Below, piece after piece: positions 2-64,000 of a DNA stretch of 64,000 bases. The stretch comes from Phycisphaerae bacterium (lineage in GTDB: Bacteria; Planctomycetota; Phycisphaerae; Phycisphaerales; SM1A02). A model generated the notes under the pieces. That model searched no databases and was not told the DNA's origin. It saw nothing but the letters and a program-made list of their open reading frames with translations. The stretch covers positions 13,811 to 77,810 of the forward strand of contig JAEUIT010000010.1 of NCBI GenBank assembly GCA_016795035.1, in the 5' to 3' direction. Both the position numbers and the translations under genes were made by a program. Positions within the stretch are counted from its first letter, which is position 1. The number at the start of each line of letters is the position of its first letter.

Positions 2-1810
2 GAGATCCAGCGCATCATCCGCGAGGTCGATCCGCCCAAGCCGAGCACGCGCGTGTCAACCTTGGGCGACACCGCGACGAGCATCGCGGCGCACCGACGC
101 ACCGAGCCCGGAAAGCTCGGCGCGGTCATGCGCGGCGACCTCGACTGGATCGTGATGAAGTCGCTCGAGAAGGACCGCACGCGGCGCTACGACTCCGCGG
201 GCGATTTCGCGGCCGACATCGAGCGGCATCTGAAGGGCGAGCCGGTGCTCGCGGCGCCGCCGTCACGGGCGTATCGCCTCGGGAAGTTCGTGCGTCGCCG
301 CCGTGGCGTCGTCGCGGCCGTCGCGGCGGTGGCGGTCACGCTCGTCGGCGGCATCGTGGGGACGTCGGTCGGACTGGTGCGGGCGCGCGCCGCCGCGCGC
401 GACGCGAACCTCGCGCGGGGGAATGAGGTTGAAGCCCGCGAGCGCGCCGAGGCGACGACGGCCTTCCTGCGCGACATGCTCGCGTCGGTCGATCCCGAGG
501 TCGCGCAGGGGCGCGAGGTCACGGTGCGCGAGGTCCTCGACCGCGCCGCGGCCGATCTGCGCGCCGGGGGGATGAAGGACCAGAATGTCGAAGCGGCGTT
601 GCAGCTCACGATCGGCGAGAGCTACAACCAGCTGGCCCGCTACGACGAGGCCCGCGCCGCTTTCACGCGGGCGCGGGAGATCCTCCTCGCGCGCCGCGGC
701 CCCGACGACCGCGCGACGCTCGCCGCCGAGGCGGGCATCGCCGTCGCGGATCTCCAGCATGGCGACCTCGCCCGCGCGCAGCCGGCGCTCGAGGCGATCG
801 CGGCGCGGCGCCTCGCGCTCTTCGGTGCGGACGACCCCGACACGCTCGACGCGCAGAGCCTCGTCGGCTACGCGATCCAGGTCGCGGGCGACGACGAGAA
901 GGCGCTTCCGATCATGCAGGACGTCGTCCGCCGCGAGACCGCGGTGCTCGGCACGCGCCACAAGAAGACGCTGGAATCGATGTGCAGCGTCGCCGACATC
1001 CTGCAAGGCCTCGGGCGACTCGAGGACGCCGAAGCGGCGGGGCGCGCGGTCGTGACGGCGGCGACGGCGGCACAGGGCGACGACGGCGCGCAGACGCTCG
1101 TCGCGAAGAGCATCCTCGTCTCGATCCTCAACGAGCGCGGCCGCTACACCGAAGCGGAGCCGCTCGGCCGCGACGTGCTCGCCCGCAAGGAGCGGCTGTA
1201 CGGGGCGGACCATTCGTCGACCGTGATGACCGCGATGGTGGTCGGCACGACGCTCGAACACCTGAATAAGTTCGACGACTCGATCGCGGTGCTCGAGAAG
1301 GCGCTCGCGAGCTCGAACCGCGTGCTCGGGGCGGAGCATCCGACGTCACTCGCGCTCTCGAACAACCTCGCGCGCTCGCTACATCTCGGAGGTCGCCTCG
1401 ACGAGTCCGAAGCGCTCTTCCGACGCACGCTCGAGACTCGCCGCCGCGTCTCAGGCGACAAGGCGACGCCGACCCTCGCGCTCATGAATAACCTCGGGCT
1501 CCTGCTCCTCGCCCGCGACAAGCCCGCCGACGCGGAAGCGATCCTTCGCCCGATGCTCGCGGGCATCGACGAGACGACGCCGCCCGACCATTGGCTCCGC
1601 GGTCAGGCGCGGATCAGCGTGGGCAAGAGCCTTTCCGCCCAGAAGCGGTACGCGGAGGCGGAGCCGTTCTTCCTGGAGGGATACGCGCAACTCGCGCGGA
1701 CGCTCGAGGAAGGCCACGACCGCCGGACGAACGCGGTCGCGGCGATCGTCGACCTCTACACGAAGTGGGGGAAGTCGGCCGAGGCCGACGCGTGGCGGCT
1801 GAAACGTTGA
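2..1810 (+). CDS. Ser/Thr protein kinase, C-terminal part (5' end outside window) with TM helix and TPR repeats
   Basis: Frame is open from the window edge (EIQRIIREVDPPKPS...). Shows the Hanks-kinase C-lobe (DLDWIVMKSLEKDRTRRYDSAGDFAADIERHL), one TM helix (VVAAVAAVAVTLVGGIVG), then about 10 TPR-like repeats. Stop TGA at 1808-1810. Confidence 0.9.
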   Translation, partial: EIQRIIREVDPPKPSTRVSTLGDTATSIAAHRRTEPGKLGAVMRGDLDWIVMKSLEKDRTRRYDSAGDFAADIERHLKGEPVLAAPPSRAYRLGKFVRRRRGVVAAVAAVAVTLVGGIVGTSVGLVRARAAARDANLARGNEVEARERAEATTAFLRDMLASVDPEVAQGREVTVREVLDRAAADLRAGGMKDQNVEAALQLTIGESYNQLARYDEARAAFTRAREILLARRGPDDRATLAAEAGIAVADLQHGDLARAQPALEAIAARRLALFGADDPDTLDAQSLVGYAIQVAGDDEKALPIMQDVVRRETAVLGTRHKKTLESMCSVADILQGLGRLEDAEAAGRAVVTAATAAQGDDGAQTLVAKSILVSILNERGRYTEAEPLGRDVLARKERLYGADHSSTVMTAMVVGTTLEHLNKFDDSIAVLEKALASSNRVLGAEHPTSLALSNNLARSLHLGGRLDESEALFRRTLETRRRVSGDKATPTLALMNNLGLLLLARDKPADAEAILRPMLAGIDETTPPDHWLRGQARISVGKSLSAQKRYAEAEPFFLEGYAQLARTLEEGHDRRTNAVAAIVDLYTKWGKSAEADAWRLKR

Positions 1811-1846
1811 GCGGCGATCCCCCTTAGGGCGAGTCACCGGGGCGAG

Positions 1847-2413
1847 TCATCTGGTTGTATCGGCGTCGACCCACGCGAGCGCGGGAAGGCCGTCGATACT
1901 GCGGGCGTTCTTGTCGCGCTGATAGGCGCGCACGCCGTCCTCGCCCTTGCGATCCGCCCAGTCGGGCAGTTGGGTGCGATCCTTCGTGTAGGTCATGAGC
2001 GGCACGCCGAAGCCGCAGGAATCCGCGACGCGCGAGAGGTCCGCGACGATGACCGAGCGCACCCCGTTGCCCTCGGGGAATCGCCCCCGCAGCGCCGCGA
2101 ACTCGGAGTTGCCCGGCTCGACGACGCGCCCGCGCCCGTAGAGCCTGAGGATCTTCGGCGGCCCCTCGAACGCGCAGAAGAGGATCGTGATGCGCCCGTT
2201 CTCGCGAAGGTGCGCGATCGTCTCCGCGCCACTCCCGACGTAATCGAGGTACGCGACCGATCGCGGCGAGAGGATCGCGAACGTCGCGAGCCCTTTCGGC
2301 GAGAGGTTGACGTGCCCCGCATCGCTCCGCGGCGCGGTCGCGACGAAGAAGACGTGTTGCGCCGCGATGAAGGCCTGATGGGCGTCGGTCAGTTCGTCGT
2401 ACGTCTTTCCCAT
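1847..2413 (-). CDS. pyridoxamine 5'-phosphate oxidase family protein
   Basis: ATG at 2413 gives MGKTYDELTDAHQAFIAAQHVFFVATA...HVNLSPKG, typical of the PNPOx-like FMN-binding split-barrel family. The upstream part of the ORF is Arg-rich and non-protein-like. Confidence 0.8.
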   Translation of the reverse strand: MGKTYDELTDAHQAFIAAQHVFFVATAPRSDAGHVNLSPKGLATFAILSPRSVAYLDYVGSGAETIAHLRENGRITILFCAFEGPPKILRLYGRGRVVEPGNSEFAALRGRFPEGNGVRSVIVADLSRVADSCGFGVPLMTYTKDRTQLPDWADRKGEDGVRAYQRDKNARSIDGLPALAWVDADTTR

Positions 2414-2893
2414 GGCGGGGAGTGTGGCAGCGCGCCGGCCCGGCGGCGAGGGACGTGGGAGGAAACGCCGTCTCCAGAGACGCATGCGCGGGGCGAGACC
2501 GCGCGCTCCCCGAGGACGTCAGATCACGTCTGGTTCGCGACGTGTGAGGTTCGCTGCCATTTCCCTGGTGCGGTTCCCCCCTAACTTTGGAATGGTCGTA
2601 TGCTCCGGGCCAGCATCGCGTGAGAGGGACCGTTGCCGTTCACCGGCGTTTCCCGCAGGAACTCTGCGCCCGTCGCCTTCATGACGTGGCGCCGTTCCGC
2701 CTCTCGGGAATTGGTTCTCGAGATCCTCTCGGCGGCGTCGATCGGTCCGTACCTCTGACGGAGACGGGAACATACTCCGACCTGGTCGAACAGGTCGGTG
2801 ATGGCCGTTCGACCCGCGGTCACGAGTGACAGATGCAACGAGCCATCGGCGTTCGTCGGGCTCTGTGGACCTCCTCATGCCGGGAGCGGCTCG

Positions 2894-5800
2894 ATGACCT
2901 CCGCACGCCACCGCAGTCTTCTCTGGGCAATCGTCTTCTTCGCGGCCTACGCGCTCGCCGGATGGTTCGGCAACGGACTGCGCCTCATTCCCGGCGTCGC
3001 CATCACGTTTTGGCCGCCTGCCGGCGTATTCATGGCCACGCTGATCATGACGCGACGGCGGTCGTGGCCGCTATGGATTCTCGCGGGCTGCCTCTCGGAA
3101 CTTGCGCTGAACGCGGCGCTCTTTCACAATCCGCTCGTCCTCGCGATCGGCTACTTCGCGGGCAATGTGCTCACCGCCGTGCTCGGCGCGACGCTCATTC
3201 GATGGGTCTGTCCGCGACCGTTTCGACTCGACTCGCTGGAGCAGGCCGCGGCGCTCGTCTTCTTCGGCGCGGCGGCCGCACCGGTCGCGAGCGCCACGGT
3301 CATCGCCGCGATCGACGCCGGAGTCGGCAAACACACGTTCGTGCGCGCATGGTCCTACGTGTGGCTCGGCGACTGCACTGGGCTCCTGGTGTCTGGGCGC
3401 GGTGCCCACGCCATACCTCGCCGTCGTGCCGATCCTCTGGGCCTCGGCGCGCTTTCAGCTCATGGGAGCCGCCGCGTCGTTGGGCGTGCTTGCGGTGGCG
3501 AGTGCGTGGCTGACGGTCTCGGCCCTGAATAGGTTGGGCGCCGCGCCGGAATCCCTCGGGCCCCGCATCGTCGAACTCCAGGTCTTTCTTGGGATCTGTG
3601 CCGTCGCTGCGCTGATCGTGGCCACGCTCTCGGCGCAGCGCCACCACGTGACGGAACGGCTGCAGGAATTGAATGACACGCTGGAGCGGCGAATCCAAGA
3701 CCGCACGGCGAGTCTTCAGGAGAGTGAACGGCGATCGCTCGCCCTCGAGGAAGCCGCGCGCGAGGCGGCGGCGCAACTGAGTCAAACGCTCGACACGGCC
3801 GCCGTCGGGTTGGTGCGCGTCAATCGTGACTTCGTGCACGTGTCGGCAAACCCCGCGTACGCCGCGCTCGCGGGTCTCCCCGTCGGGGCGATCGTGGGGC
3901 GCCATATGGTGGACGTGATCGGCGCGAGCGCGTTTGCCGCCATTCGTCCCTTTCTCGACCGAGTGTTGGCCGGGGAGACCGTCGAGTACGAGACGTTGCT
4001 GCCTTTCGCGCACGCTCCCGCGGCGCATATCCATGTCGTCCACACGCCCTGGCGTGACACCCGCGGGCAGGTGACCGGGTGGGTCGGATCCGTCACCAAC
4101 ATCACGCAGCGCAAGTACGTGGAGGAGCGCCTCCGCGCAAGCCGAGAGCACCTGAGCGTCGCGATGCAGGCATCGCAATCGCTCAGCTTCGAGTGGGACA
4201 TTCCCAACGACCGCGTGCGCCATCTGCACAGCGCCGACGCGTCGCTGCCGATGACCGAAGTGGGAAGCTTCGACGACGCGTTGATGGCCGTACATCCGGA
4301 CGACCGCGCGATGGTTCGCGCCAAGGCGGAGGCGGCGCTCACCTCGACGGACGGCGAGTACGCCGCGGAATTCCGCGTCCTTCGGCCCGACGGTCAGGTC
4401 GCCTGGAAGAGCGAGAGCGGGCGTGTCGAGTTCGACGCAGAGGACCGGCCGCTACGGCTGATCGGCATTCGCCGCGACGTCACCGCCCAGAAGGCGGCCG
4501 AGGAGCAGCAGCGCTACAGCGAAGAGTTGCACCGCATCTCGTTCGACCACTCCCCGACCGGCATCGTGCACGTGAGTCTCGACGCGCGCTTCATCCGCGT
4601 GAATCAGGCCATGTGCGAGATCACGGGCTATGCCGCGGACGAACTGCGGGGGAAGTCGATCGCGGACCTCACGCATCCGGACGACGCGGCCCGTGATGCC
4701 GAGCTTCTCGATGCGTACGTGCGCGGAGACACGTCGTTCTACGAGAACGACAAGAGGTACGTGCGCAAGGACGGGAGCATTCGTTGGGTCTCGATCTCGG
4801 CTCGCATGGTGCGAGACGCCGCCGGCAACCCGCTTCACAGCGTGGGCAGCGTGCGCGACATCACCGAACGCGTGCGGGCACTTGGTCTCCTCCGCGAGAG
4901 CGAGCAGCGCTTCCGCGTGATGGCGGACGGACTGCCGCTGGCCGTGTGGGTTCATGACGCGAACGGCACGCAGGAGTTCGTGAACGGCACCTTCTGTCGG
5001 TTCTTCGGGCTCACGCCGGAGGACCTGCAGCGCGACCGATGGCAGACTCTCATCCATCCCGAGGACGAGGCCGAATACGTCGGGCGATTCCGAGAGTGCG
5101 TCCGCGAGCGGCGACCGTTCCACGCTCGCGCGCGGGTGCGGGTCGCGGACGGGTCGTGGCGCTGGGTCGAGTGCTGGGGCCAGCCGCGAATCGACGACGA
5201 CGGCACGTTCCTCGGAATGGTCGGCGCGACCGCGGACATCACGGAACAGCGGACGTCGGAGGAGGAACTTCGCGCGCACCGCGAGAACCTTGAGCTCCTG
5301 ATCGAGAAGCGGACCGCCGAACTCGAAGCGAGTCATCGCCGGCTTCGGCTCTCGGAGCGAATGGCAAGCTTGGGAACGCTGGCCGCGGGCCTCGGCCACG
5401 ACATGGGCAACCTGCTCATTCCCCTGGGCGTGCGGCTCGATTCGCTCGAGGGACACGACCTCAGCGACGCCGCGAAGGACGACGTGAGAGCCATTCGCAC
5501 GTCGGCGGAGTATCTCCAGAAGCTCGCCAATGGGCTTCGACTTCTCGCGCTCGATCCTGAACGATCACCGGTTGGCGAAGCCACCGAGCTCGCGTCGTGG
5601 TGGAGTGATGCGAAGGGGGTGCTGAAGAACGTGCTGCCGATCGGCGTCGCCCTCGACTCCGACTTCACCACCGGCGCGTGCACGATCGCGATGTCCAAGG
5701 CGGCGCTGACCCAGGTCATCTTCAACCTGGTCCAGAACGCGGGTGACGCAATGAAGGCGCAGCGATCGGGACACGTCCGCGTCCGCGCGCAGATCGAAGG

Positions 5801-6344
5801 GTCACGCGTGCGGATCGAGGTGTCGGACGACGGACCGGGAATGACGTCGGAGGTCCAGGAGCGCTGCATGGAGCCCTTCTTCTCGACGAAGCCCCGCGGC
5901 ATCTCGACTGGACTCGGGTTGGTGCTGGTCTATGGGCTCGTGCGTGAGGCGTCGGGAACGGTCGAACTTAGGTCGGCACTCGGAAAGGGAACCACGTTCG
6001 TCCTCGACCTGCCCGTCGCGTCGCCCGCGACGAAGGTGAAGGAGGAGGGGCGCGGCAAGAGTGCCGTCGTTGCGTTGCACGACGCGCGGCTTCGTTCGTT
6101 CGTCACTGGTGAACTGACCGCGCTCTCGTACGACGTGAAGGATTCGAGCGGTTTGGACGTCGCCGAGCTTTGCGTCGTCGACTGCGAGAACATCCTCCGA
6201 CGTGTGCCGAAGGGCGCGAAGGTCGTCTATCTGGGAAGTCACGTGCACGAGTCGAGTCTGCAGATTCGCTCGCTCGGCGGTCGTCCCCACGTGTCGGCCG
6301 TGCGGGCTGCGATCCGGGACCTGTGCGGAGAGAGCGACGCGTAG
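2894..6344 (+). CDS. MASE1 - 4x PAS - HisKA - HATPase sensor histidine kinase, interrupted by an apparent 1-nt frameshift near 3392 (possible pseudogene or sequencing error)
   Basis: The N-terminal MASE1-like membrane domain (frame of ORF 2798..3532, ATG 2894, ...SYVWLGDCTGLLV) continues seamlessly in the frame of ORF 3165..6344 (LGAVPTPYLAVVPILW...) if t3392 is skipped. Downstream are four PAS-like modules, an H-box (GLGHDMGNLLIPL) and N/G boxes (NLVQNAGDAM, DDGPGM, GLGLVLV). Confidence 0.8.
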
Positions 6345-6439
6345 CCGCGACGCCGCGACCTCGTTCCTCGACGGGTCCCCGAAGGAGAGCGCGCGACGAT
6401 GGAACGGGGGATGACGAAGGTGCGCCCCGCCGTGGGCGT

Positions 6440-7860
6440 TCGGTGTGGAGCCGACACATCCTTGGAGGGCGTGCGGAGACATCCTTGGCACCCCGAGGGA
6501 GGTTGGGGGGGGCGTTTTGCGCCTCGTTCGAGGGGCGTCAATGCCATGTGCGGCGCGCACTGGCCACACCACTGCGCGGTCCCAGTCCGGGCACATGGGT
6601 GACACTTTCTTCGGATGCTGTGGCCAGACCGCTGCGCGGAGGGTTACGGCCAAGGCGCACTGGCCACACCAGTGCGCTGGCCGATGCCTTCCGACGACGT
6701 GGTCAGACCACTGCGCATTAGCGCGCACTGGCCACACCAGTGCGCTCGCCCGACGACGTGGCCACACCACTGGACTCCGCGCACTGGCCACACCAGTGCG
6801 CGGTGCATCGGCGCGCACTGGCCACACCACTGCGCGGCCTCCGGTTCGGACCGGACACCTCCTTGGCAGGCGTGCGGAGACATCCTTGGCACCCCGATCG
6901 CGGTCGGGGGATCGTTTCGCGCCTCGTTCAAGGGGCGTCAATGCGATGGGAAGAACGTTCCGGGCGGCGCGCACTGGCCACACCACTGCGCCGTCCTTGG
7001 CAGGCGTGTGCGGCGCGCACTGGCCACACCACTGCGCGGTCCCAGTCCGGGCGGCGCGCACTGGCCACCCGGCGCGCACTGGCCACACCCGTGCGCTTGC
7101 CCCTTCCGATGACGTGGCCAGACCACTGCGCCCCGCCAGTGCGCGGCACCTGGTCGCGAGCGCGCACTGGCCACACGACTGCGCGGTCCCAGTCCGGGCA
7201 CATGGGTGACACTTTCTCCGGGTCCTATGGGCAGACCGCCGTGGGCGCACTGGCCACACCAGTGCGCGGGCCCCGGGTGTCGTGGCCAGACCACTGGATC
7301 CGACGATGTGGCCACACCACTGCGCCCCGCCGTCCGCGCGCATGGCTGACACGTCTTCCGGGCGACGTGGCCACACCATTGCGCGCCGCTCGGGTCTCGT
7401 GGCCAGACCACTGCGCGGGGGGATGACTGCCAACGCGCACTGGCCACACCAGTGCGCGACGCCAACTACTCGTCGGCGGACGGGCGTAATGCGCACTAGC
7501 CACACCAGTGCGCTGGCCGACGCCTTCCGACGACGTGGCCAGACCACTGCAGACTAGCGCGCACTGGCCACACCATTGCGCTAGCCCGACGACGTGGCCA
7601 CACCACTGCGCCCCGCCGTCCGGGCGCATGGCTGACACGTCTTCCGGGCGACGTAGCCAGACCACTGCGCGCCGCAGTCCAGGCACATGGGTGACACTCT
7701 CTCTGAGGACACGCACTCGTAACTGTGCGCATTGGCCACACCAGTGCGCGGGTCCCGGGTGTCGTGGCCAGACCACTGCGCGGGGGATGACGGCCAACGC
7801 GCACTGGCCACACCAGTGCGCGACGCCAACTACTCGTCGGCGGACGGGCGTACGTCAGAG
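6440..7860. repeat. Non-coding hyper-repetitive island: about 28 same-strand copies of core TGGCCA[C/G]ACCA[C/G]TGCGC. About 15 copies extend to the 23-nt hairpin GCGCACTGG-CCACA-CCAGTGCGC.
   Basis: Read directly. The 23-mer or near-variants start near 6555, 6655, 6723, 6779, 6813, 6969, 7015, 7073, 7162, 7245, 7435, 7491, 7559, 7727 and 7799. A second variant, GACGTGGCCAGACCACTGCGC, is interleaved. Longer blocks are duplicated (6452-6548 vs 6853-6945; 7417-7488 vs 7782-7852). ORFs here occur in all frames and translate to low-complexity WPHHCA / VWPVR strings. Confidence 0.9.
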
Positions 7861-8227
7861 CCCGTCGACGCGTCGGCACCAGTGCACGAGTTGAGTCCCT
7901 CGCGGGAGCGGGCGGGGGGGGCGCGAAGCCTAGGTCGGCGTTCCGGTTACCAGCGTCGGCGCGGGGGCTCGGAGCTGTGGCCGAGGCGAGATGACCGCGC
8001 AGGCGATCGTGGCGGGAATCGGTGCTTGTGATCGCCGCAGGGGGCGGCGAGGGCACCGCTCACGCGTCTTTTCGGCGTTCTATTCCTTCGAGGGTCGCGG
8101 CACCGCCATGACGGCGCTTGTCGCGTCGACCGTGCGGCGCCTCGGCTCGACGCCCTCGGCGACGGTTCCGATCCCGCACGTGCGCAGGTGCGCACGTCGT
8201 GCGGCGGTCGGCGACACTGCGGCGACT

Positions 8228-8956
8228 ATGGCACGTCCGACGCCTCCACGGATGTCTGAGACACCGCCTCCAGACCCCACTCCTCGTTCGTCGGGCGGCG
8301 CCTCGCGCGTGAGCGGGGCGCCCTTGGACGACGCCGTCGACGCGGCCATCGCGTCGATGTCGATCCATCCGAACGCCACGCGCTTCGATCCGGCAAGCGT
8401 CACGCGTCCCGACGAGCGGCTTCTCCGCTACTACCAGATCGTCTCGGCGCTCACGCTCGTCTTCTTCCCGATCACCTTCATCCCGCTCTACCTTCGCTAT
8501 CGCACGCTGCGATACCGCTTCGACGACGAGGGCGTCGGCATGAGCGTCGGTCTCCTCTTCAAGCAGGAGACCTACCTGACGTACCGGCGCATCCAGGACA
8601 TTCACGTCACCCGCGGACTCCTGCAACGATGGCTCGGGCTCGCGACCGTCTCGGTGCAGACCGCGGCGGGCTCGTCCTCGGCGGAAATGACGATCGAAGG
8701 CGTCGCCGATCCGGACGGACTCCGCGACTGGCTTTACACCCGCATGCGCGGCGCGCACGATCCGCACCCGGCGGCGCGCTCGGATGGAAGCGGCGAGGAA
8801 TCGGCGCCGACGTCGGGGGCCGACGACGACGGCGCCGACGACGACATGCTCACGCTTCTTCGCGAGATTCGCGACGAGGTTCGTGCCCTGCGCGCCGCGG
8901 CCGCAACCGAGCGGCGGTCGCGCGAGCCTTTGTCGGACGAAGGAGGCGCGGGATGA
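8228..8956 (+). CDS. bacterial PH domain (bPH_2 / YdbS-like) membrane protein
   Basis: Two TM helices (YYQIVSALTLVFFPITFIPLYL) followed by RYRFDDEGVGMSVGLLFKQETYLTYRRIQDIHVTRGLLQRWLGLATVSVQTAG. Start is uncertain (ATG 8228 chosen; alternatives 8108 and 8252). Confidence 0.7.
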   Translation: MARPTPPRMSETPPPDPTPRSSGGASRVSGAPLDDAVDAAIASMSIHPNATRFDPASVTRPDERLLRYYQIVSALTLVFFPITFIPLYLRYRTLRYRFDDEGVGMSVGLLFKQETYLTYRRIQDIHVTRGLLQRWLGLATVSVQTAAGSSSAEMTIEGVADPDGLRDWLYTRMRGAHDPHPAARSDGSGEESAPTSGADDDGADDDMLTLLREIRDEVRALRAAAATERRSREPLSDEGGAG

Positions 8957-12864: not shown

Positions 12865-12871
12865 CGGCTCG

Positions 12872-12932: not shown

Positions 12933-12934
12933 TG

Positions 12935-41944: not shown

Positions 41945-42094
<150 letters not shown>

Positions 42095-54713: not shown

Positions 54714-54875
54714 GCGCGGCCTTCGGCCGCGGGGAGTCAGGAGCCAGGATTGAGGAGTCAGGGTGAAGGACACCCGACGTGCGGCGCGAGCGATCGTGGC
54801 CACTGCCTCCTGACTCCAGACTCCTGACTCCCTTCTTCACGCCCTTGACCCTTGGTCCTTCATTCTCAACCCTCC
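54714..54875. repeat. Heptamer-tract palindromic element, copy 3
   Basis: GCGCGGCC-TTCG-GCCGCG hairpin, GGAGTCAGGAGCCAGGATTGAGGAGTCAGGGTGAAGG, about 40 nt, then CTCCTGACTCCAGACTCCTGACTCCCTTCTTCACGCCC... Lies directly after the stop at 54712. Confidence 0.8.
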
Positions 54876-54881
54876 CCCAAA

Positions 54882-56192
54882 ATGCCCTCTCGCATCGTCA
54901 TCCTCGGCGGCGGATTCGGCGGCCTCTACGCGGCCCTTGCCTTCGAGAAGGCGCTTCGCCGCCGCGATGATCTCGAAGTGGTCCTCGTGAATGAGGACAA
55001 CTTCTTTCTCTTCACTCCGATGCTGCATGAGGTCGCCGCGAGCGATCTCGACGTCACGACGATCGTGAACCCCATCCGCAAGCTCGTCTCGCGGGTGCGC
55101 TTCTTCTGCGGAACCTGCCGCGAGGTCGATCTCGAGCGGTCGACGGTGCGCCTCGTCCACGGCGACGACGGCCACGACCATGAGGTCGCATTCGATCACC
55201 TCATCTGCGCGCTCGGCTCCGTGACCAACTTCCACGGCGTTCCCGGCCTCGAGCGCCACGCACTGACGATGAAGTCGCTGGGCGACGCGATCGCGGTCCG
55301 TAACCGCGTCATCGCGTCGCTTGAGGAAGCGGACTTCGAGTGCTGCGCCTCGCAGCGGTCGCGGCTCCTGACGTTCGTCGTTGCAGGCGGAGGATTCGCC
55401 GGCGTCGAGACGGCCGCGTCGATCAACGACTTCCTGCACGAGGCGCTCGCCTTCTATCCGAACCTCACGCGTGCCGAGTGCCGCGTCGAGCTCGTGCATT
55501 CCGGCGATGTCATCCTGCCCGAACTGCGCGGGTCGCTCGGCGAGTACGCGCAGCGCAAGCTCGGCGAGCGCGGCGTCACGATCCGGACGGGCGTGCGCGT
55601 CGCCGGCTACGACGAGGGACGCACCGTGCGCCTCTCAAACGGCGAGTCGTTCGAGGCGGGCACGCTGATCTGGACCGCGGGCACGGCGGCGCATCCCTTG
55701 TGCTCGTCGTTGCCGTGCGCCCGCGAGCGAGGACGCCTGAAGGTCGACGGCTCGCTTCGCGTCGAAGGCACGACGAACGTGTGGGCGCTCGGCGACTGCG
55801 CGCTTGTGCCGAACGTCGCGCGAGGCGGTTTCCATCCGCCGACGGCGCAGCACGCGATCCGCGAAGGGACGCACGTCGCACGCAACGTGCTCGCGGCGCT
55901 CGATGGCCGCGCGCCGACGCCATTTCGATTCCGCACGATCGGCCAGCTCGCGTCGCTCGGCCGCCGCACCGGCGTCGCCAACATCCTCGGCGTCAACTTC
56001 TCCGGCTTCATCGCCTGGTGGATGTGGCGCACGATCTATCTCGCGAAGCTTCCGCGTTTCGAGAAGAAGGTGCGCGTCGCGCTCGACTGGACGCTCGACG
56101 TCCTCTTCTCGAAGGACCTCGTGCAGCTGCGTGCGGCGACCCGCGTGGCGCCGCCATCGGAGGCGGTGCGGATCCTCGCCGAATCGACCTGA
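54882..56192 (+). CDS. ndh: type II NADH dehydrogenase (NDH-2) / FAD-dependent pyridine nucleotide-disulfide oxidoreductase
   Basis: ATG 54882. RIVILGGGFGGLY, FVVAGGGFAGVE and WALGDCA motifs. C-terminal membrane-anchoring helix. Confidence 0.88.
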   Translation: MPSRIVILGGGFGGLYAALAFEKALRRRDDLEVVLVNEDNFFLFTPMLHEVAASDLDVTTIVNPIRKLVSRVRFFCGTCREVDLERSTVRLVHGDDGHDHEVAFDHLICALGSVTNFHGVPGLERHALTMKSLGDAIAVRNRVIASLEEADFECCASQRSRLLTFVVAGGGFAGVETAASINDFLHEALAFYPNLTRAECRVELVHSGDVILPELRGSLGEYAQRKLGERGVTIRTGVRVAGYDEGRTVRLSNGESFEAGTLIWTAGTAAHPLCSSLPCARERGRLKVDGSLRVEGTTNVWALGDCALVPNVARGGFHPPTAQHAIREGTHVARNVLAALDGRAPTPFRFRTIGQLASLGRRTGVANILGVNFSGFIAWWMWRTIYLAKLPRFEKKVRVALDWTLDVLFSKDLVQLRAATRVAPPSEAVRILAEST

Positions 56193-56233: not shown

Positions 56234-58903
56234 ATGCAACGCACCTGCAACGCGGAATCGTGTCGGCTCGAAGACGACGGCGCTCGACGGGCGAATTGGA
56301 AGCGATGGGGGCCCTATCTCGCCGACCGACAGTGGGGCACGGTGCGCGAGGACTACTCGGCCGACGGCGACTGCTGGAACCATGTCTCGCACGACGCGGC
56401 CCGAAGCCGCGCGTACCGCTGGGGCGAGGACGGGCTCTTTGGCTTCAGCGACCGGCAGTGCCGGATGTGCCTCTCGTTCGCGCTGTGGAACGAGCGAGAT
56501 CCGATTCTCAAGGAACGCCTCTTCGGACTGACGAACGGCGAGGGAAACCACGGCGAGGACGTCAAGGAGGCGTACTACTTCCTCGACGGCACGCCGACGC
56601 ACTCGTACATGCGGGCGCTCTACAAGTATCCGCAGCGGGCGTTCCCCTATGACGAACTGGTCCGCGAGAATCGCCGCCGCGGCGTCTTCGAGCGCGAGTT
56701 CGAGATCGGCGACGCGGGCGCGTTCGACGACGACCGCTACTTCGACGTGACGATCGAGTGGGCGAAGGCGTCCGAGGAGGACCTCGTGCTGCGTCTCACC
56801 GTCGCGAACGCCGGTCCCGACTCGGCGCGGCTGCATGTCCTTCCCACCCTCTGGTTCCGAAACACGTGGAGCTGGGGGCGCGTCGGCGAGGAGGGGCACG
56901 ATGCAAAGCCGGTGCTCAGGCAGGCGTCCGATGGAGTCGTCGAGGCGGAGCATCCGTCGCTCGGGCGGTATCGCTTCGAGGTGCTCGAGTCGGCGGACGT
57001 CGCGCCTGACTTCCTCTTCACGGAGAACGAGACGAACGCGGCGCGGCTCTTCGGCGCGGCCAATGCCGCGCCGTACGTGAAGGACGCCTTCCATGCCCGT
57101 GTCGTCGACGGCCGGCGCGACGCGACGAACCCGGCCAACGTGGGAACGAAGTGCGCGGCGCACCTCGTTCTCGACATCCCGGCCGGTGCGTCGCGACAGG
57201 TCACCGTTCGCCTCGTCGCATCCGGTGAGCCAGCGCGCCTCGACGCCGAGCGGGTCATCGAGGCGCGGCGATCCGAGGCCGATGCCTTCTATGCCGAACG
57301 ACTGGGAAGCGCCGTATCCGCCGAGGAGGCGCGCGTCGCCCGGCAGGCGTACGCGGGGCTTCTCTGGTCGAAGAAGTTCTATCACTACTCGCTCACGCAG
57401 TGGCTCGGCGGCGACCCAGGGCAGCCGGCGCCGCCTGCAACGCGGAGAGCGGGTCGCAACGCGGAGTGGACGCACCTCTACAACCGCGACATCCTCTCGA
57501 TGCCCGACGCGTGGGAGTACCCGTGGTACGCGGCCTGGGACCTCGCCTTCCACATGATCCCGTTCGCGCGGATCGATCCGGCGTTCGCGAAGGAGCAACT
57601 GCTCCTACTTCTTCGCGAGTGGTACATGCATCCGAACGGCCAGATGCCGGCCTACGAGTTCGCGTTTGGCGACGTCAATCCGCCCGTGCACGCGTGGGCC
57701 TGCCTCGAGGTCTACCGCATCGGCGCGCGGGAGGGCAGGGCCGACCGCGCGTTTCTGGCCCGCGCGTTCCAGAAACTCCTCATCAACTTCACCTGGTGGG
57801 TGAACCGGAAGGACGTTTCCGGAAAGCACGTCTTCGCGGGCGGATTCCTCGGGCTCGACAACATCGGCGTGTTCGACCGTTCGCGACCGCTTCCCACCGG
57901 CGGCTCGTTGGAGCAGGCCGACGGCACGGCGTGGATGGCGTTCTATTGCGCGACGATGCTGGCGATCGCGCTCGAGCTCGCTCGCGTCGATGCGAGCTAC
58001 GAGGACGTCGCGAGCAAGTTCTTCGAGCACTTCATCGCCATCGCCGACGCGATGAACGGCCTCGGCGGCACGGGCCTCTGGGACGACCACGACGGCTTCT
58101 ATTACGACCAGCTCCAGGTCGACGGGACCCGCATGCCGCTCAAGGTGCGGTCGATGGTCGGTCTCCTTCCGCTGATCGCGTGTCTCGTCCTCGAGGAGGA
58201 CACCATCTCCGCGTTGCCGGGCTTCGCCAAGCGCATGCGCTGGTTCGTCGAGAATCGCGCCGACCTCGCCCGCTCGATCGCGTACCTCGAGTCTGCACCG
58301 GAGGGCGCCGGGACGCACGCCCATCACCTCCTCGCGATTCCGTCGCGGGAGCGACTCGAGCGCGTCCTGCGTCCGCTTCTCGACGAAAGCGAGTTCCTCG
58401 CGCCGCACGGCCTCCGCAGCGTCTCCCGGGCGCATCGCGACCGACCCTTCGTGTACCGCACCGTGGACGGGGACGAGTTCCGCGTCGACTACGTTTCGGG
58501 CGAATCGACGAGCGGGCTCTTCGGCGGCAACTCGAACTGGCGCGGACCGATTTGGTTTCCCGTCAACTACCTCCTCATCGAGGCGCTCGAGCGCTACGGC
58601 CATTTCTACGGCGACACGCTGACGGTCGAGTGCCCGAGCGGATCGGGACGCCGCCGTACGCTCGACGAGGTCGCCGCCGACCTGCGGCGCCGACTCATTT
58701 CGCTCTTCCTGCCCGCGGAGGGGGGCCGCCCGTGCCATGGCGGGGATTCGCGTCACGCGTCCGATCCGCGCTGGCGCGATCTCGTCCTCTTTCACGAGTA
58801 CTTCGATGGCGACACCGGTCGCGGCCTCGGCGCGAGTCACCAGACCGGATGGACGGCGCTCGTCGCCTCGCTGATTCGCGATCGTGCGACGCCCGGGGCG
58901 TGA
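56234..58903 (+). CDS. GH63-like (MGH1-like) glucosidase
   Basis: WKRWGPYLADRQWGTVREDYSADGDCWNHVSHDAARSRAYRWGEDG N-terminus and a C-terminal (alpha/alpha)6 region (YPWYAAWDLAFH, GGFLGLDNIGVFDRS, NWRGPIWFPVNYLLIEAL). Confidence 0.88.
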   Translation: MQRTCNAESCRLEDDGARRANWKRWGPYLADRQWGTVREDYSADGDCWNHVSHDAARSRAYRWGEDGLFGFSDRQCRMCLSFALWNERDPILKERLFGLTNGEGNHGEDVKEAYYFLDGTPTHSYMRALYKYPQRAFPYDELVRENRRRGVFEREFEIGDAGAFDDDRYFDVTIEWAKASEEDLVLRLTVANAGPDSARLHVLPTLWFRNTWSWGRVGEEGHDAKPVLRQASDGVVEAEHPSLGRYRFEVLESADVAPDFLFTENETNAARLFGAANAAPYVKDAFHARVVDGRRDATNPANVGTKCAAHLVLDIPAGASRQVTVRLVASGEPARLDAERVIEARRSEADAFYAERLGSAVSAEEARVARQAYAGLLWSKKFYHYSLTQWLGGDPGQPAPPATRRAGRNAEWTHLYNRDILSMPDAWEYPWYAAWDLAFHMIPFARIDPAFAKEQLLLLLREWYMHPNGQMPAYEFAFGDVNPPVHAWACLEVYRIGAREGRADRAFLARAFQKLLINFTWWVNRKDVSGKHVFAGGFLGLDNIGVFDRSRPLPTGGSLEQADGTAWMAFYCATMLAIALELARVDASYEDVASKFFEHFIAIADAMNGLGGTGLWDDHDGFYYDQLQVDGTRMPLKVRSMVGLLPLIACLVLEEDTISALPGFAKRMRWFVENRADLARSIAYLESAPEGAGTHAHHLLAIPSRERLERVLRPLLDESEFLAPHGLRSVSRAHRDRPFVYRTVDGDEFRVDYVSGESTSGLFGGNSNWRGPIWFPVNYLLIEALERYGHFYGDTLTVECPSGSGRRRTLDEVAADLRRRLISLFLPAEGGRPCHGGDSRHASDPRWRDLVLFHEYFDGDTGRGLGASHQTGWTALVASLIRDRATPGA

Positions 58904-58936: not shown

Positions 58937-60808
58937 GTGTCCACCCAGATCCTCGGCATCGACCTCGGCACCACGAACTCGCTCGTCGCGATCTGCGACG
59001 AACGCGGCCCGCGCGTGCTGCGCGACGAGGACGGTCACGCGCTCGTCCCGAGCGTGGTGCGATTCGGAACGCGCGGCGAGGTCGTGGCCGTCGGGCGCGA
59101 GGCGCTCGCGCACGCGGTCGAGTTTCCGCGGGAGACCGTCTATAGCGCGAAGCGCCTCGTCGGCCGAAGCGCCACGGAGATCGGCGAGGTCGCGGCGCGC
59201 TTGCCGTATCGCGTCGTGCCCGGGCCCCGCGGCATCGCCGCGATCGAGGTTCCGACCAGCGCCGGCTCCGCGCTCGTGACGCCGCAGGAAGTCGCGGCCC
59301 ACGTTCTCGCGCGCCTCAAGACGATCGCCGAGCGCGAGCTGCAACACGGAGTCTCGAAGGCCGTCATCACCGTGCCCGCCTACTTCGACGACGGGCAGCG
59401 CCAGGCAACCCGCGACGCCGCCCGCCTCGCGGGGCTCGAGGCGGTGCGCATCGTCAACGAGCCGACCGCCGCGAGCCTCGCCTACGGGCTGGGCCGGCCG
59501 GCGTCGCGCGGGCCCCGGAAGGCCGAGCGCATCGCGGTCTATGACTTCGGCGGCGGCACCTTCGACATCTCGATCCTCGAGATCTCGAGCGACGAGAGCG
59601 CCGCCGGCGGCGATCTCTTCCAGGTCCTCGCGACGGCAGGGGACACCGCGCTCGGCGGCGACGACATCGACCGCGCGATCATCGATCTCGTCATGCGCGA
59701 GATCCGCGAGACCTTCGGCGCCGCGCTCGACTTTCCGCCGAGCGCGCGGCAGGCGCTTCGCCAGTTCGCCGAAGGCGCGAAGGTCGCGCTCTCCGAGCGC
59801 GAGACGACGACGCTCGAAGTCGGGTTGGGAACCGGACGCACCTATCGCCGTACGCTGACCCGCGCCGATCTCGAGGCGCTCGCCGCGCCGTTCGTCGAGC
59901 GCACGCTCGTCTCGTGCCGGCGCGCGCTCGCCGACTCTGGCTGCAACGTCGAGTCGATCGACCGCGTGGTGCTCGTCGGCGGCTCGACGCGCATGCCGAT
60001 CGTGCGGCGCGAGGTGGAGCGGGTCTTCGGCAAGGTGCCGTACACCGCGCTCAATCCCGACGAGGTCGTCGCGCTCGGCGCGGCGGTGCAGGCGGCGATT
60101 CTCGCGGGCGACCGGCGCGACCTCCTTCTCTTCGACGTGCTGCCGCTCTCCCTCGGGATCGAGACGGTGGGCGGCGCGGTCGCGAAACTCCTGATGCGGA
60201 ACGCGACCGTTCCGGCGCGGGCGAAGGAGATGTTCTCGACGTCGGTCGACGGCCAGACGAACGTGAAGATCCACGTGATGCAAGGCGAGCGCGAGCTCGT
60301 GCAGCACTGCCGCAGCCTCGGGCAGTTCGAGCTGCGCGGTATCCCTCCGATGCCCGCGGGAATCCCGCAGGTCGAGGTCGAATTCCTCGTCGACCAGAAC
60401 GGCGTCCTCGACGTGAGCGCGGTCGAGCGGCGAAGCGGCCGACGAGCGTCGATCCAGGTCGTGCCGAGCTACGGCCTGACCCGCGACGAGGTCGATCGGA
60501 TCGAGGCGGAGAGCTTCCGTCACGCCCGCGAGGACATGCACGTCCATCGCGTCATCGACCTCCGGGTCAATGCGGCGCTCGACCTCAAGTGGATTGAGAC
60601 GGCCTTGGCGAGGGTGCGCGGCGAACTTCCGGCTGCAACGGTGGCCGAGGTCGAGGCCCGGATGGACGAGGTGCGCTCGTTCCTTGCGGCCGCCGACCGG
60701 GACGCGGCCTCGGTCGACGCCAATTGCTTTCACCAGGCGAAGGACGCCCTCGATCGGGCGAGCGTGCCGGTGCACGAGAAGGCGATCGCCCAATCGCTCC
60801 GGAGTTGA
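58937..60808 (+). CDS. Hsp70 family chaperone, HscA-like
   Basis: GTG 58937 gives (M)[17 protein letters not shown]. Also [33 protein letters not shown] and [10 protein letters not shown]. No hscB/iscU in the window. Confidence 0.88.
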
Positions 60809-60964: not shown

Positions 60965-61564
60965 ATGGACCTCACGCGCACGACCACGGCCCTCTTGGTG
61001 GGACTCCACGATTCGGCGAACGAGCCGGCGTGGGAGGAGTTCGACCATCGCTATCGCCCGATCCTGCTCGGCTTCGCCCGCAACCTCGGGCTCAGCGACG
61101 AGGACTCGGCCGACATCGCGCAGGAGACGCTCGTGCGCTTCGTGCAGGACTATCGCGAAGGCAAGTACGACCGCTCGAAGGGGCGACTCGGCGCGTGGCT
61201 CGTCGGCATCGCCCGCTATCGCATCCTCGACCTGCGTCGCCATCGCGCGAACCACTACGAGGTCAACGCCGACTTCGACCTGCTCGATCCCGTCAAGTCC
61301 GACCAACTGCAGGCGGTGTGGGACGGCGAGCATCGCAAGGCGATCCTGCGCGAGGCGATGAAGGAGTTGCGCTCGACGAGCCGCACCGACGAACGGACGA
61401 TCCGCGCGTTCGAGCTCGTCGCGGCGCACGGCCGCTCGCCGCAGCAGGTCGCCGAAGAGTTAGGCATGTCGGTCCATGACGTCTATCTCGCGAAGAGTCG
61501 CGTGAGCCAGAAACTCCGCGAAATCGTCGACCGCCTCGAGAAGGTCTTCGCCGAGGGAGCGTGA
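60965..61564 (+). CDS. ECF sigma factor translationally coupled to a Ser/Thr kinase
   Basis: Region 2 (DSADIAQETLVRFVQDY...GAWLVGIARYRILDLRR) and region 4 (RTIRAFELVAAHGRSPQQVAEELGMSVHDVYLAKSRV). The stop shares one nt with the ATG of the kinase at 61564. Confidence 0.88.
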   Translation: MDLTRTTTALLVGLHDSANEPAWEEFDHRYRPILLGFARNLGLSDEDSADIAQETLVRFVQDYREGKYDRSKGRLGAWLVGIARYRILDLRRHRANHYEVNADFDLLDPVKSDQLQAVWDGEHRKAILREAMKELRSTSRTDERTIRAFELVAAHGRSPQQVAEELGMSVHDVYLAKSRVSQKLREIVDRLEKVFAEGA

Positions 61565-64000
61565 TGGCCGACGAGGGAACGCCGAGGAGGAAGGAGCCTC
61601 CACCGCGAACCTTCGCGGGAGACGATGCACCGACGATCGACTCGGCGTCGGCGCCGGCGCCGTTCGATCCGGACGTGACGCAGGCCGATCCGCGGAGCGC
61701 CGTGCCGCCGCCGTCCCATCCGGGCGTGTCGCGTCCGCCCGCGTCGCGGGCGCCGACCTACGGCGACGACGTCACCGTCCCCGGCTGCCCGAACCGCGGG
61801 CAACTCGAGCTCTTCGCGTCGAAGTCGCGCGCGGAGCAGGACTCCGACGCGCCGATCTCGCATCACCTCTCGATGTGCCCGGTCTGCCGCGAGGTCGTGC
61901 GGCAACTCTCCGCCGACAACAACCTGATCGCCGAGTACGTGCACGCGAACCGGGGTCGCTTCGATCCGGTCTCGCCCTTGTCGGCGTCGGTCTTCGGCGA
62001 CGATCCCCTGAGCGCCGGCCCGTTCGCCGGGTCGGGCTCGCCGGCCGAGGTCGTGCCCGGCTTCCGCATCGAGGGCGAGATCCATCGCGGCGCCCAGGGC
62101 GTCGTCTATCGCGCGGAGCAGCTTTCGACGCGCCGACGCGTCGCGCTCAAGACCTTGCTGCAGGGCAAGTTCGCCACGAGCCGGCAGCGCCAGCGCTTCG
62201 AGCGCGAGGTCGAAGTCGTCGCGAGCCTGCGCCATCCGAACATCGTCACGCTCTTCGAGTCGGGGCGCACCCGCGACGGCCTGATGTTCTTCGCGATGGA
62301 GCTCGTCGCGGGCGGGCCGCTGAGCGATGTCCTCCGCGCGACCGAGAAGCCGTCGCGCGAGAAACTCCTCTCGATGTTCCTCGCGATCGTGCGCGCGATC
62401 GCGTACGCGCACCAGCGCGGCGTCATTCACCGCGACCTGAAGCCGGGCAACATCCTCATCGACGAGGAATTGGTCCCGCACGTCCTCGACTTCGGCCTCG
62501 CCCGCACCGCGCGCGGCGACGAGACGCAGGAGGCGATCGAGACGACCGCCGCGGGCGAATTCCTCGGCACGTTCGCGTACGCGGCGCCCGAGCAACTGAA
62601 GGGCGATCCCGACCTTATCGACGTCCGCACCGACGTCTTCGCGCTTGGCGTGATCCTCTACGAACTCCTCGCGGGGCAGCGCCCGTGGCAGTTGCAGGGG
62701 CGCGTCTCGATCGCCGACCTCCTCATCGCGCGGCTTGAGCAGGCGCCGAAGCCGCCGTCCGAGCTGCAGCCGGGGATCGACAAGGACCTCGACATCATCA
62801 CGCTCACGTGCCTGAAGTCGCGGCCCGAGGAGCGCTATCAGACCGCCGCCGCGCTTGCCGAGGACATCGAGCGCTTCCTCCGCGGCGAGCCGATCCTCGC
62901 GCGGCGCGACTCCGCGTGGTACGTCGCGCGGAAGTGGGTCGCGCGGCACAAGGTCGCGACGACGACCGCCACCGGCTTCGCGCTTGTCGTCGTTGCAGGC
63001 ATCATCGCGCTCGTCGTCGCCTTCGGGTGGGCCGATCGCGAGCGCGTCCGTGCCGAGACCACGCTCGACGAACTCGTCACCACGCTGAAACTCTCGAACC
63101 CCGAGACCGGCATCGGCGAGATCGGGATGTCGTTCATCTGGTTCCTCGACCGGCTCAGCGAGGAATTGGACAAGCGCGCCGAGCGCCACCAGCTCGCCCT
63201 CACCGATCCCGAGCGCGCCCTCGACGACTACGAGATCTACGTCAACCTCCTGAACACCATCGAGGCGATCCAGCTCGACTTCGGCGTCGACCGGCTGTCG
63301 ACTGAGGCGCGGGCCCACCGCGAGGAGCGCTTGCTCAAGGCGCTCGCCGTCGCGAAGGAGTTGGCGACGCGGAGCGGCGAGCGGGACCACCCGGAAATCG
63401 CCGAGGCCACCCACAACCTCGCCCGCTTCCATCTCCTCAGTAAGGACACGACGAGGGCCGAGGATCTTTATCGCCAGGCGTTGGCGATCCACGAGCGGCT
63501 GCATGGCGTCGACAGCGAGGAAGGGGCGCTCACGATGCGCCACCTCGCCGCGTGCCTTCGCCAGCAGGCGCGGGCCGCGAAGGACAAGCCCGACGTTCGG
63601 AAGCGCCTGCTCGACGAAGGGGAGAATCTGCTTCTCCGCGAACAGGCGATCCACGCCCGCCGCGACAACGGGCACAACGAGGACTTCGCCGCGGCGCTCA
63701 ACGGCCTCGCGCAGATCTACGAGGAGCGCGGCGACACCGAGCGCGCCTTCGCGCTCTACTCCCGGGCGCTCGATCTCATCCGGCAGCTGACCGGCGACCG
63801 CTCCTATCGCACCGGCCGCGGCAACTACAAGCTTGGGCAGATCTACCTGAACCGCGGACAGCTCGACGACGCGCTCAAGCACTTCGAGATCGCCGTCGAC
63901 GTCGTTCCGAAGACGCGCGGCGAGGAGGCGCTGAGCGCCGTCGAAGCGCGCGGGTCGTACGCGGCGGCGCTTCTGCGGCGCGGCGGCTCGATTCCCGAAG
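61564..64000 (+). CDS. Ser/Thr protein kinase with N-terminal zf-HC2-like motif, TM helix and TPR tail (3' end outside window)
   Basis: Open frame from ATG 61564 to the window end (not in the ORF track because it lacks a stop). HHLSMCPVC at 61861-61887. Kinase motifs GAQGVVYRA, VALK, HRDLKPGNILI, DFGLAR, APEQ. TM VATTTATGFALVVVAGIIALVVAF, followed by TPR-like repeats. Confidence 0.9.
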   Translation, partial: MADEGTPRRKEPPPRTFAGDDAPTIDSASAPAPFDPDVTQADPRSAVPPPSHPGVSRPPASRAPTYGDDVTVPGCPNRGQLELFASKSRAEQDSDAPISHHLSMCPVCREVVRQLSADNNLIAEYVHANRGRFDPVSPLSASVFGDDPLSAGPFAGSGSPAEVVPGFRIEGEIHRGAQGVVYRAEQLSTRRRVALKTLLQGKFATSRQRQRFEREVEVVASLRHPNIVTLFESGRTRDGLMFFAMELVAGGPLSDVLRATEKPSREKLLSMFLAIVRAIAYAHQRGVIHRDLKPGNILIDEELVPHVLDFGLARTARGDETQEAIETTAAGEFLGTFAYAAPEQLKGDPDLIDVRTDVFALGVILYELLAGQRPWQLQGRVSIADLLIARLEQAPKPPSELQPGIDKDLDIITLTCLKSRPEERYQTAAALAEDIERFLRGEPILARRDSAWYVARKWVARHKVATTTATGFALVVVAGIIALVVAFGWADRERVRAETTLDELVTTLKLSNPETGIGEIGMSFIWFLDRLSEELDKRAERHQLALTDPERALDDYEIYVNLLNTIEAIQLDFGVDRLSTEARAHREERLLKALAVAKELATRSGERDHPEIAEATHNLARFHLLSKDTTRAEDLYRQALAIHERLHGVDSEEGALTMRHLAACLRQQARAAKDKPDVRKRLLDEGENLLLREQAIHARRDNGHNEDFAAALNGLAQIYEERGDTERAFALYSRALDLIRQLTGDRSYRTGRGNYKLGQIYLNRGQLDDALKHFEIAVDVVPKTRGEEALSAVEARGSYAAALLRRGGSIPE

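Follow-up and report, generated by a model that had tools for sequence, protein, structure and literature searches.

The window analysed here is a 64-kb stretch of a Phycisphaerae bacterium genome (assembly GCA_016795035.1, contig JAEUIT010000010.1, positions 13,811 to 77,810; 69.0% G+C). Among and within its genes, which include pyrD, scpA, aroA, pheT and an Hsp70 gene, lies a dispersed short word. Its core, the octamer CTGCAACG, is present in 41 exact copies (23 on the + strand and 18 on the − strand), and every coordinate listed for it in an initial reading of the letters alone (the sequence-only reading) proved to be an exact match. Based on the alignment of these copies, the true unit is an asymmetric word of about 15 bp, GSCTGCAACGNSGAG, which can be written G-S-CTGCAACG-N-S-G-A-G with S standing for G or C. 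Using gene assignments from Pfam-supported open reading frames and gene calls on near-identical public contigs, 35 of the 41 exact copies (85%) are genic and six are intergenic, in a window with a coding fraction of 88%. The 3′ half of the word, GCAACGNSGAG, was counted 38 times where 0.98 would be expected, and in 19 of these cases the exact octamer is missing. Exact and 3′-half copies combined amount to 60 sites in 64 kb, or about one per 1.07 kb. These sites, together with the near-copies in two composite repeats, are as follows (coordinates of the 15-bp unit):

592-606 (−): exact copy AGCTGCAACGCCGCT; TPR gene, antisense
8619-8633 (+): exact copy; bPH gene, sense
11077-11091 (+): exact copy; TPR/Fe-trafficking gene, antisense
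11819-11833 (−): exact copy; pyrD, antisense
12332-12346 (−): 3′-half copy CTTCGCAACGCGGAG; pyrD
12870-12934: inverted pair of full copies, 12872-12886 (−) and 12918-12932 (+); intergenic, between convergent genes
15455-15469 (−): 3′-half copy TCCGGCAACGCGGAG; SIS-CBS gene
16121-16135 (+): 3′-half copy GCATGCAACGAGGAG
16490-16504 (−): exact copy GCCTGCAACGTGGAG; gene for a 510-aa hypothetical protein, antisense
17090-17104 (−): 3′-half copy
17442-17456 (+): 3′-half copy
18192-18206 (−): exact copy; scpA, antisense
18619-18633 (+): exact copy; scpA, sense
18909-18923 (+): exact copy; intergenic, abutting the half arm of a composite hairpin repeat (CTGCAACGGGGAGAAGGAACCACAGATGAACAC)
19163-19655 (−): three near-copies (CGCCTGCAACAGAGAAG / ...AGGGAAG) in the loops of three 239-bp hairpin units, with 8-mers at 19168, 19407 and 19646
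20946-20960 (+): exact copy; Cu-oxidase/SCO1 gene, antisense
21478-21492 (+): 3′-half copy
21946-21960 (−): exact copy; Cu-oxidase/SCO1 gene, sense
24165-24179 (+): exact copy; intergenic, abutting the half arm of a second composite repeat
24356-24583 (+): two near-copies (CTGCAACAGAGA) in hairpin loops, with 8-mers at 24358 and 24571
24663-24677 (−): 3′-half copy
25588-25602 (+): 3′-half copy
26637-26651 (+): exact copy; VWA gene, antisense
27294-27308 (+): exact copy; VWA gene, antisense
27590-27604 (+): 3′-half copy
28740-28754 (+): exact copy; metallophosphoesterase gene, sense
31348-31362 (+): 3′-half copy
31613-31650 (+): direct pair of exact copies at a distance of 23 bp (8-mers at 31615 and 31638); intergenic
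31949-31963 (+): exact copy; glyoxalase-family gene, antisense
32425-32439 (−): 3′-half copy
35516-35530 (+): exact copy; aroA, sense
36405-36419 (+): exact copy; pheT, antisense
36840-36854 (−): exact copy; pheT, sense, in a variable stretch
37436-37450 (+): 3′-half copy; pheT
38059-38073 (−): exact copy; pheT, sense
39394-39408 (+): exact copy; gene for a 289-aa hypothetical protein
39472-39486 (−): 3′-half copy
43933-43947 (−): 3′-half copy
44324-44338 (−): exact copy; choice-of-anchor I gene, antisense
44900-44914 (−): exact copy; choice-of-anchor I gene, antisense
45080-45094 (+): exact copy; choice-of-anchor I gene, sense
46084-46098 (+): 3′-half copy
46665-46679 (+): 3′-half copy
48578-48592 (+): exact copy; glycogen-debranching gene, sense
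48707-48721 (−): exact copy; glycogen-debranching gene, antisense
49290-49304 (+): exact copy; glycogen-debranching gene, sense
49607-49621 (−): exact copy; glycogen-debranching gene, antisense
50354-50368 (−): exact copy; glycogen-debranching gene, antisense
52121-52135 (−): exact copy; GMC oxidoreductase gene, antisense
53680-53694 (−): exact copy; glyoxalase gene, antisense
54284-54298 (−): exact copy; DM13 gene, antisense
55374-55388 (−): exact copy; NDH-2 gene, antisense
55703-55717 (−): 3′-half copy
56243-56257 (+): exact copy; GH63-like gene, sense
57433-57466 (+): exact copy with a direct 3′-half copy 19 bp downstream (57435 and 57454); GH63-like gene
58207-58221 (−): 3′-half copy
59939-59953 (+): exact copy; Hsp70 gene, sense
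60631-60645 (+): exact copy; Hsp70 gene, sense
62986-63000 (−): exact copy; Ser/Thr kinase-TPR gene, antisense

In 100 dinucleotide-preserving shuffles of the window, the octamer occurred 1.97 ± 1.49 times with a maximum of eight, in line with the approximately two copies and the 20-fold excess estimated in the sequence-only reading. The comparison with Markov models, which had been proposed there as a genome-wide check, was made on the window and placed CTGCAACG well above expectation at orders 1 to 4: it is the top dispersed 8-mer outlier at order 1 (41 vs. 1.9) and order 2 (41 vs. 1.8), and the excess persists at order 3 (41 vs. 3.5) and order 4 (41 vs. 8.0). It vanishes at order 5 only, where the test is circular because the 6- and 7-mers behind the expectation are dominated by the word itself. 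Other strong 8-mer outliers (ATGAACAC, TGGCCACACC and CCTGACT) represent local tandem or inverted arrays, and CTGCAACG stands alone at the top of the ranking once the count is restricted to copies separated by 100 bp or more. Within coding sequences, 1000 within-gene synonymous-codon shuffles, which preserve the proteins and the codon usage of each gene, yielded 2.4 ± 1.4 copies (maximum eight), and 1.2 copies were expected from whole-codon shuffling, compared with the 35 observed. This is a short asymmetric word at about one site per kilobase, far over composition-based expectation, as is typical of the uptake sequences considered below.

The sequence-only reading had stated that the base 5′ of the word is always G or C, which holds for position −1 in 41 of 41 copies; position −2 is G in 33 of 41. 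On the 3′ side, position +8 is unconstrained and +9 is mostly S, followed by G at +10 (38/41), A at +11 (34/41) and G at +12 (23/41). Columns outside −3 to +12 resemble background, and the extension of the motif is one-sided, with an information content of about 18 bits over about 15 bp for GSCTGCAACGNSGAG. The extended form CTGCAACGCGGAG is present at 31638, 36407 and 57435 on the + strand and at 12877, 44329 and 50359 on the − strand, and the form CTGCAACGTCGAG at 35518, 49292 and 59941 on the + strand; all extended forms listed from the letters alone were recovered, and an additional CTGCAACGTCGAG was found at 36845 on the − strand. Likewise, the one-mismatch variants, which had been put at 20 or more, are enriched, with 27 copies of CGGCAACG against 6.5 expected, six of CTGCAACA against 0.5, six of ATGCAACG against 1.3 and nine of CTGCACCG against 3.0. 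Half of the CGGCAACG copies carry GA at +10/+11, against 8% in the background. Most other neighbours of the word are enriched, whereas CTGCGACG, which differs from it by an opposite-strand CpG to TpG transition, is under-represented, with 4 copies against the 12.8 that a Markov model of order 1 predicts. All six intergenic copies have GA at +10/+11, and the extension is therefore no codon effect.

The genic copies fall into the reading frames as follows:

antisense C-GTT-GCA-G, peptide V-A: 16 copies
sense CT-GCA-ACG, peptide A-T: 6 copies
sense C-TGC-AAC-G, peptide C-N: 5 copies
sense CTG-CAA-CG, peptide L-Q: 4 copies
antisense CG-TTG-CAG, peptide L-Q: 4 copies
antisense CGT-TGC-AG, peptide R-C: 0 copies

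Copies had been thought to sit in all reading frames; in fact, five of the six are used and the CGT-TGC-AG frame is empty. Both GTT and GCA are rare in the window genes, where GTC/GTG and GCG/GCC are the dominant valine and alanine codons, and the word supplies 16 of 82 and 21 of 117 of them, respectively. In pheT, the copy at 38064 lies in the conserved peptide WLQRRL and differs from ten relatives by synonymous changes (CAG to CAA and CGG/CGC to CGA), while at 36407 the codons GCG TTG CAG (A-L-Q) replace the GCG CTG CGC (A-L-R) of most relatives, resulting in an R to Q exchange. Orthologue alignments revealed no indel at any of the three exact pheT copies, which have therefore arisen by substitution and not by insertion. 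Genic copies run against codon preference and occasionally against amino-acid conservation, and the force behind the word acts at the nucleotide level rather than the protein level.

Frame counts and codon-aware shuffles rule out a peptide motif or codon bias as the cause of the excess. The flanks are unrelated among copies except for those at 18911 and 24167, both of which adjoin a composite repeat, and these unrelated flanks together with the gap-free pheT alignments rule out the footprint of a dispersed repeat or mobile element. The two explanations that the sequence-only reading had named as able to overturn it, namely a single repeat family and a single peptide motif in one frame, are both excluded by flanks, frames, codon shuffles and the pheT comparison. 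Repeats of the repetitive extragenic palindrome (REP) or miniature inverted-repeat transposable element type, whose copies lie outside genes and conserve a usually palindromic sequence of at least 20-30 bp, were rejected, as 85% of the copies are genic, the flanks beyond −3/+12 are background and there are no indels relative to orthologues. CGTTGCA / GGAAC as a sigma54 or extracytoplasmic function (ECF) sigma factor promoter was likewise rejected on inspection by eye, since the spacing is unsuitable and the copies are mainly found inside genes, on either strand.

As to orientation, the 23 + and 18 − copies divide into 15 sense and 20 antisense relative to the genes, consistent with the earlier statement that there is no strong strand bias, and a runs test on the 41 orientations (by hand) was unremarkable (z ~ −1.35). 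The GC skew of the window is weak and follows the gene strand, and no relation to copy orientation was seen. Within these 64 kb, the direction of the copies is thus independent of gene strand and of GC skew, and copies occur in both orientations inside and between genes, as is characteristic of uptake sequences. A post-hoc split at ~37 kb gives + to − ratios of 15:6 on the left and 8:12 on the right, which we do not regard as evidence of polarity. Even spacing was not seen: the distances between copies are indistinguishable from random (coefficient of variation (CV) 1.00).

The single inverted pair (12872-12886 on −, 12918-12932 on +) is located exactly between the stops of two convergent genes encoding a zincin (stop at 12864) and a Na/H exchanger (stop at 12935). 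Between its arms lie two degenerate tandem copies with a 17-bp period. The region 12872-12932 is predicted to fold into a 15-bp stem with −43.1 kcal/mol, compared with −30.2 ± 2.9 kcal/mol for shuffled sequences (z −4.46), and the pair would thus form a hairpin at gene 3′ ends in the manner of inverted uptake sequences. This is the one terminator-like inverted pair in 64 kb, and it has no T tract.

One part of the window stands apart. The 6.8 kb from 1800 to 8620 contain neither a copy nor a motif-like site (position weight matrix score of at least 9 bits), compared with 1.2 per kb elsewhere. This stretch comprises genes for a PNPOx protein and a MASE1-PAS histidine kinase as well as palindrome arrays, and it may have been acquired recently or be exempt for another reason. 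The arrays, at 6550-7830, consist of a REP-like 23-nt palindromic unit, GCGCACTGGCCACACCAGTGCGC, and take up an intergenic region of 1.5 kb. At the GCGCACTGGCCACACCAGTGCGC arrays, the public contigs of this organism are interrupted, and contig L229 begins at 8018.

Composite intergenic repeats were found at 18909-19690 (three 239-bp units) and at 24150-24620 (two related units). Each unit is a long hairpin with arms of tandem 10-mers (GATGAACACR / YGTGTTCATC) ending in GGAACCAC and a loop holding the near-copy CTGCAACAGAGA. In front of each array, a half arm is joined directly to an exact copy of the word. The sequence-only reading had placed the word at both the edges and the loops of these arrays; this is true of the edges, with exact copies at 18911 and 24167, while the loops hold the near-copy CTGCAACA only. 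A search against Rfam gave no match in the window, composite repeats included, and no composite repeats were seen in the relatives described next.

Logan assemblies from this population (runs SRR7119499-517) share 97.4-100% identity with the window and contain the same copies, and the presence of identical copies in independent assemblies from several runs rules out an assembly artefact. Logan contig sequence lying outside the window or differing from it added four further exact copies in 3.5 kb, which shows that the word also occurs beyond the window. The protein encoded at the left edge, looked up in order to extend the window, was not on record. Identity to contigs L081-L084 and L223-L256 is mosaic, with 100% at 8.0-32.3 kb, 98.1% at 33.9-41.9 kb, 99.7-99.8% at 42.1-57.9 kb and 99.5% at 59.5-64.0 kb, which fits co-existing recombining strains or a consensus built from a strain mixture.

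For comparison with relatives, 80 pheT-centred loci of Phycisphaerae and other planctomycetes (pheT identity 49-74%, at most 22 kb each) and one Logan contig were used. The best PheT protein match, from a Logan contig, is 98% identical and the next at most 74%, and the matches place the window in the Planctomycetota, class Phycisphaerae; no relative with 74-98% pheT identity was present in the databases searched. The density of the word in the 80 loci is 0-2.7 copies per 10 kb, compared with 6.4 in the window. The closest Logan relative (pheT 74%) has no copy in 10.3 kb, and a de novo screen of the 56 relative loci longer than ~10 kb detected no comparable dispersed word of their own. In all data reached, the word is restricted to one species-level lineage. 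Scanning viral contigs with GSCTGCAACGCGGAG yielded 120 single chance-level matches and no word-dense contig. Among metagenome contigs scanned with the composite-repeat pattern, only 18 single chance-level matches were found, and the lineage is therefore not in that metagenome collection.

Dispersed words of this kind are known from sequence-specific DNA uptake. The DNA uptake sequence (DUS) of Neisseriaceae, AT-GCCGTCTGAA with its dialects, is bound by the minor pilin ComP. DUS and the uptake signal sequences (USS) of Pasteurellaceae are present in hundreds to thousands of copies per genome, and their dialects are common to whole families. About half of them lie in terminators, where inverted pairs act as terminator-like hairpins. 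The accepted explanation is molecular drive, in which incoming DNA that was selected by a word-preferring receptor of the import machine takes the place of the resident allele. Hosts of such words are naturally competent, with a DNA receptor (ComP, and ComN as a predicted one) on a type IV pilus machine. A 2025 survey lists sequence-specific uptake in two proteobacterial families only.

By analogy, the most likely, though tentative, reading of GSCTGCAACGNSGAG is a lineage-specific DNA-uptake or self-recognition word that is kept by biased recombination. A monomeric DNA-binding component of a DNA-import machine would prefer word-bearing fragments, and these would recombine into the chromosome after import. 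Variants nearer the word would then be over-transmitted by molecular drive, and the word would accumulate wherever it is tolerated, including in genes against codon preference; inverted pairs could secondarily serve as terminator-like hairpins. We infer uptake, receptor and recombination drive from the likeness to DUS and USS. The sequence-only reading had already proposed an uptake sequence, and all predictions for the genomic signature that were tested hold (density, asymmetry, orientations, frames, variants and hairpin).

Like DUS (~12 bp), the word is asymmetric with a strict core and graded flanks, occurs about once per kb in both orientations, in coding and intergenic DNA, forms a hairpin as an inverted pair and is accompanied by common one-mismatch variants. 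Unlike DUS, it belongs to a host of the phylum Planctomycetota and has no sequence similarity to them. With USS it shares a similar density, a mostly genic location in several frames with preference for a tolerable peptide (here V-A, 16/35) and an extension of the motif beyond the core across less specific positions. In contrast to USS (AAGTGCGGT / ACAAGCGGT plus AT tracts), it shows no sequence similarity, lies in a GC-rich context without AT-tract extension, is confined to one lineage and is randomly spaced (CV 1.0). It also differs from both in that 15% of its copies are intergenic, with one inverted pair in the window. Judged by the absence of a core in common with AT-GCCGTCTGAA or AAGTGCGGT and by the different phylum, GSCTGCAACGNSGAG is not a member of DUS or USS by descent. 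Neither the word nor its complement was found in the literature searched, and no uptake sequence was reported there for Planctomycetota.

Several observations weigh against an uptake word. DUS dialects are family-wide, whereas neither the word nor a dialect of it is shared by any of the 81 relatives compared; on this point the proposal of the sequence-only reading was not supported. The 64-kb window contains no competence or type IV pilus gene, and no natural competence was reported for Planctomycetota in the literature searched. Single-nucleotide polymorphisms between strains hit motif positions once compared with 3.1 expected, an underpowered comparison that gives no significant constraint (P = 0.19). 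The evidence base is 64 kb plus 3.5 kb of genome. With these points in mind, we suggest with still greater caution that this might be the first sequence-specific uptake or self-recognition system outside Proteobacteria: a naturally transformable Phycisphaerae species with a 15-bp word of its own and a corresponding receptor, independent of DUS/ComP and USS and recent enough to be limited to one species-level lineage.

Among the other explanations, the one that survives best, although we consider it unlikely, is a site for another chromosome-wide transaction, such as a signal for recombination or nuclease attenuation (a Chi-like self marker), a guide for FtsK/SpoIIIE or a loading site for a nucleoid or condensin protein, with many weakly beneficial sites being selected. 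A dispersed, asymmetric and over-represented oligomer in core genes would be expected in this case, as for Chi and the FtsK-orienting polar sequences (KOPS), and the possible weak split of 15:6 vs. 8:12 coincides with the cumulative GC-skew maximum at ~37 kb, a breakpoint chosen post hoc. However, Chi and KOPS are 5-8 nt long, few-fold enriched and strongly co-oriented with replication. The word described here is a motif of ~15 bp with an excess of 20- to 40-fold or more, beyond that of known polar words, and the orientation (23:18, unremarkable runs test, no link to local GC skew) reveals no polarity detectable in 64 kb, a stretch too short to show replichores. Moreover, selection would need to be strong enough at each individual site to override codon bias and even the conservation of amino acids.

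Rather improbable is a functionless word left behind by mutation or repair with a sequence-specific bias, for example through an asymmetric-site methyltransferase and a nickase of the very-short-patch (VSP) type. Methyltransferase and VSP repair nickase are a mechanism discussed for the HIP1 palindrome (GCGATCGC) of cyanobacteria. HIP1 resembles the word as an octamer present about once per kb, in genes irrespective of frame, lineage-specific and unsettled in mechanism; in contrast to the palindromic HIP1, the word is asymmetric, spans ~15 bp and is extended on one side. A HIP1-type palindrome was rejected, as CTGCAACG is not its own reverse complement, and so was HIP1-like palindrome enrichment as a trait of the clade, with GCGATCGC only ~2-fold over expectation (35 vs. 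17-23). Independence of frame and strand would agree with a mutational origin, as would the depletion of CTGCGACG (4 vs. 12.8), which a CpG deamination route would predict. Yet the word and CTGCGACG summed are still 3-fold over expectation (45 vs. 14.7), and the pheT copies were made by several kinds of substitution. Furthermore, a ~15-bp specificity with a degenerate gap exceeds the usual methyltransferase sites, there is no methyltransferase in the window, and known VSP-type effects are only ~2-fold. The Chi-like, nucleoid-protein and methylation-linked words that the sequence-only reading had offered as alternatives are weakened.

It is very unlikely that the copies are seeds or remnants of the mobile composite repeat, i.e. 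of the hairpin elements at 18.9-19.7 kb and 24.2-24.6 kb. Seven copies or near-copies do occupy a fixed place in these elements (CTGCAAC-R-G-R-GA...GGAACCAC), but only two of the 41 exact copies share the element flanks and 39 are unrelated, 85% of the copies belong to genes whose frames are intact, and substitutions but no insertions are seen in the pheT alignments. An origin by chance, from codon or peptide bias or from faulty assembly, in favour of which only the GC-rich composition and the pronounced codon bias of the genome can be cited, can practically be dismissed, as none of the 100 shuffles reached 41 (maximum eight), the codon-aware null gave 2.4 (maximum eight in 1000), and the copies occupy five frames as well as intergenic DNA and recur in independent assemblies.

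The window has further features of its own. Heptamer arrays (AGGATTC / CCTGACT and variants) form inverted pairs in three intergenic regions (33778-33976, 42007-42077 and 54729-54842). The Logan contig L083 departs from the window exactly at the 33.9-kb heptamer array, which suggests a strain-level rearrangement at this position. At 60965-64000, a gene for an ECF-type sigma factor is followed by a Ser/Thr kinase-TPR gene (911 aa) with overlapping stop and start, which continues in contig L223 to ~64299, and a second ECF sigma factor gene with a zf-HC2 anti-sigma factor lies at 45922-46877.

How easily uptake words originate elsewhere is a question for the evolution of bacterial 'sex' and of species barriers. 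If the uptake reading is true, GSCTGCAACGNSGAG would be a third, unrelated uptake word in an uncultured planctomycete and thus a case of convergent evolution, and natural transformation would be predicted in a phylum with difficult genetics. In practical terms, the word could be added to donor DNA as an engineering handle and could serve as a species-specific tag for binning and for tracing horizontally transferred DNA. Should the cause be something other than uptake, the prevalence of a 15-bp word over codon bias, once in every kilobase, would indicate a drive or recognition system of a still unknown kind that acts across the genome.

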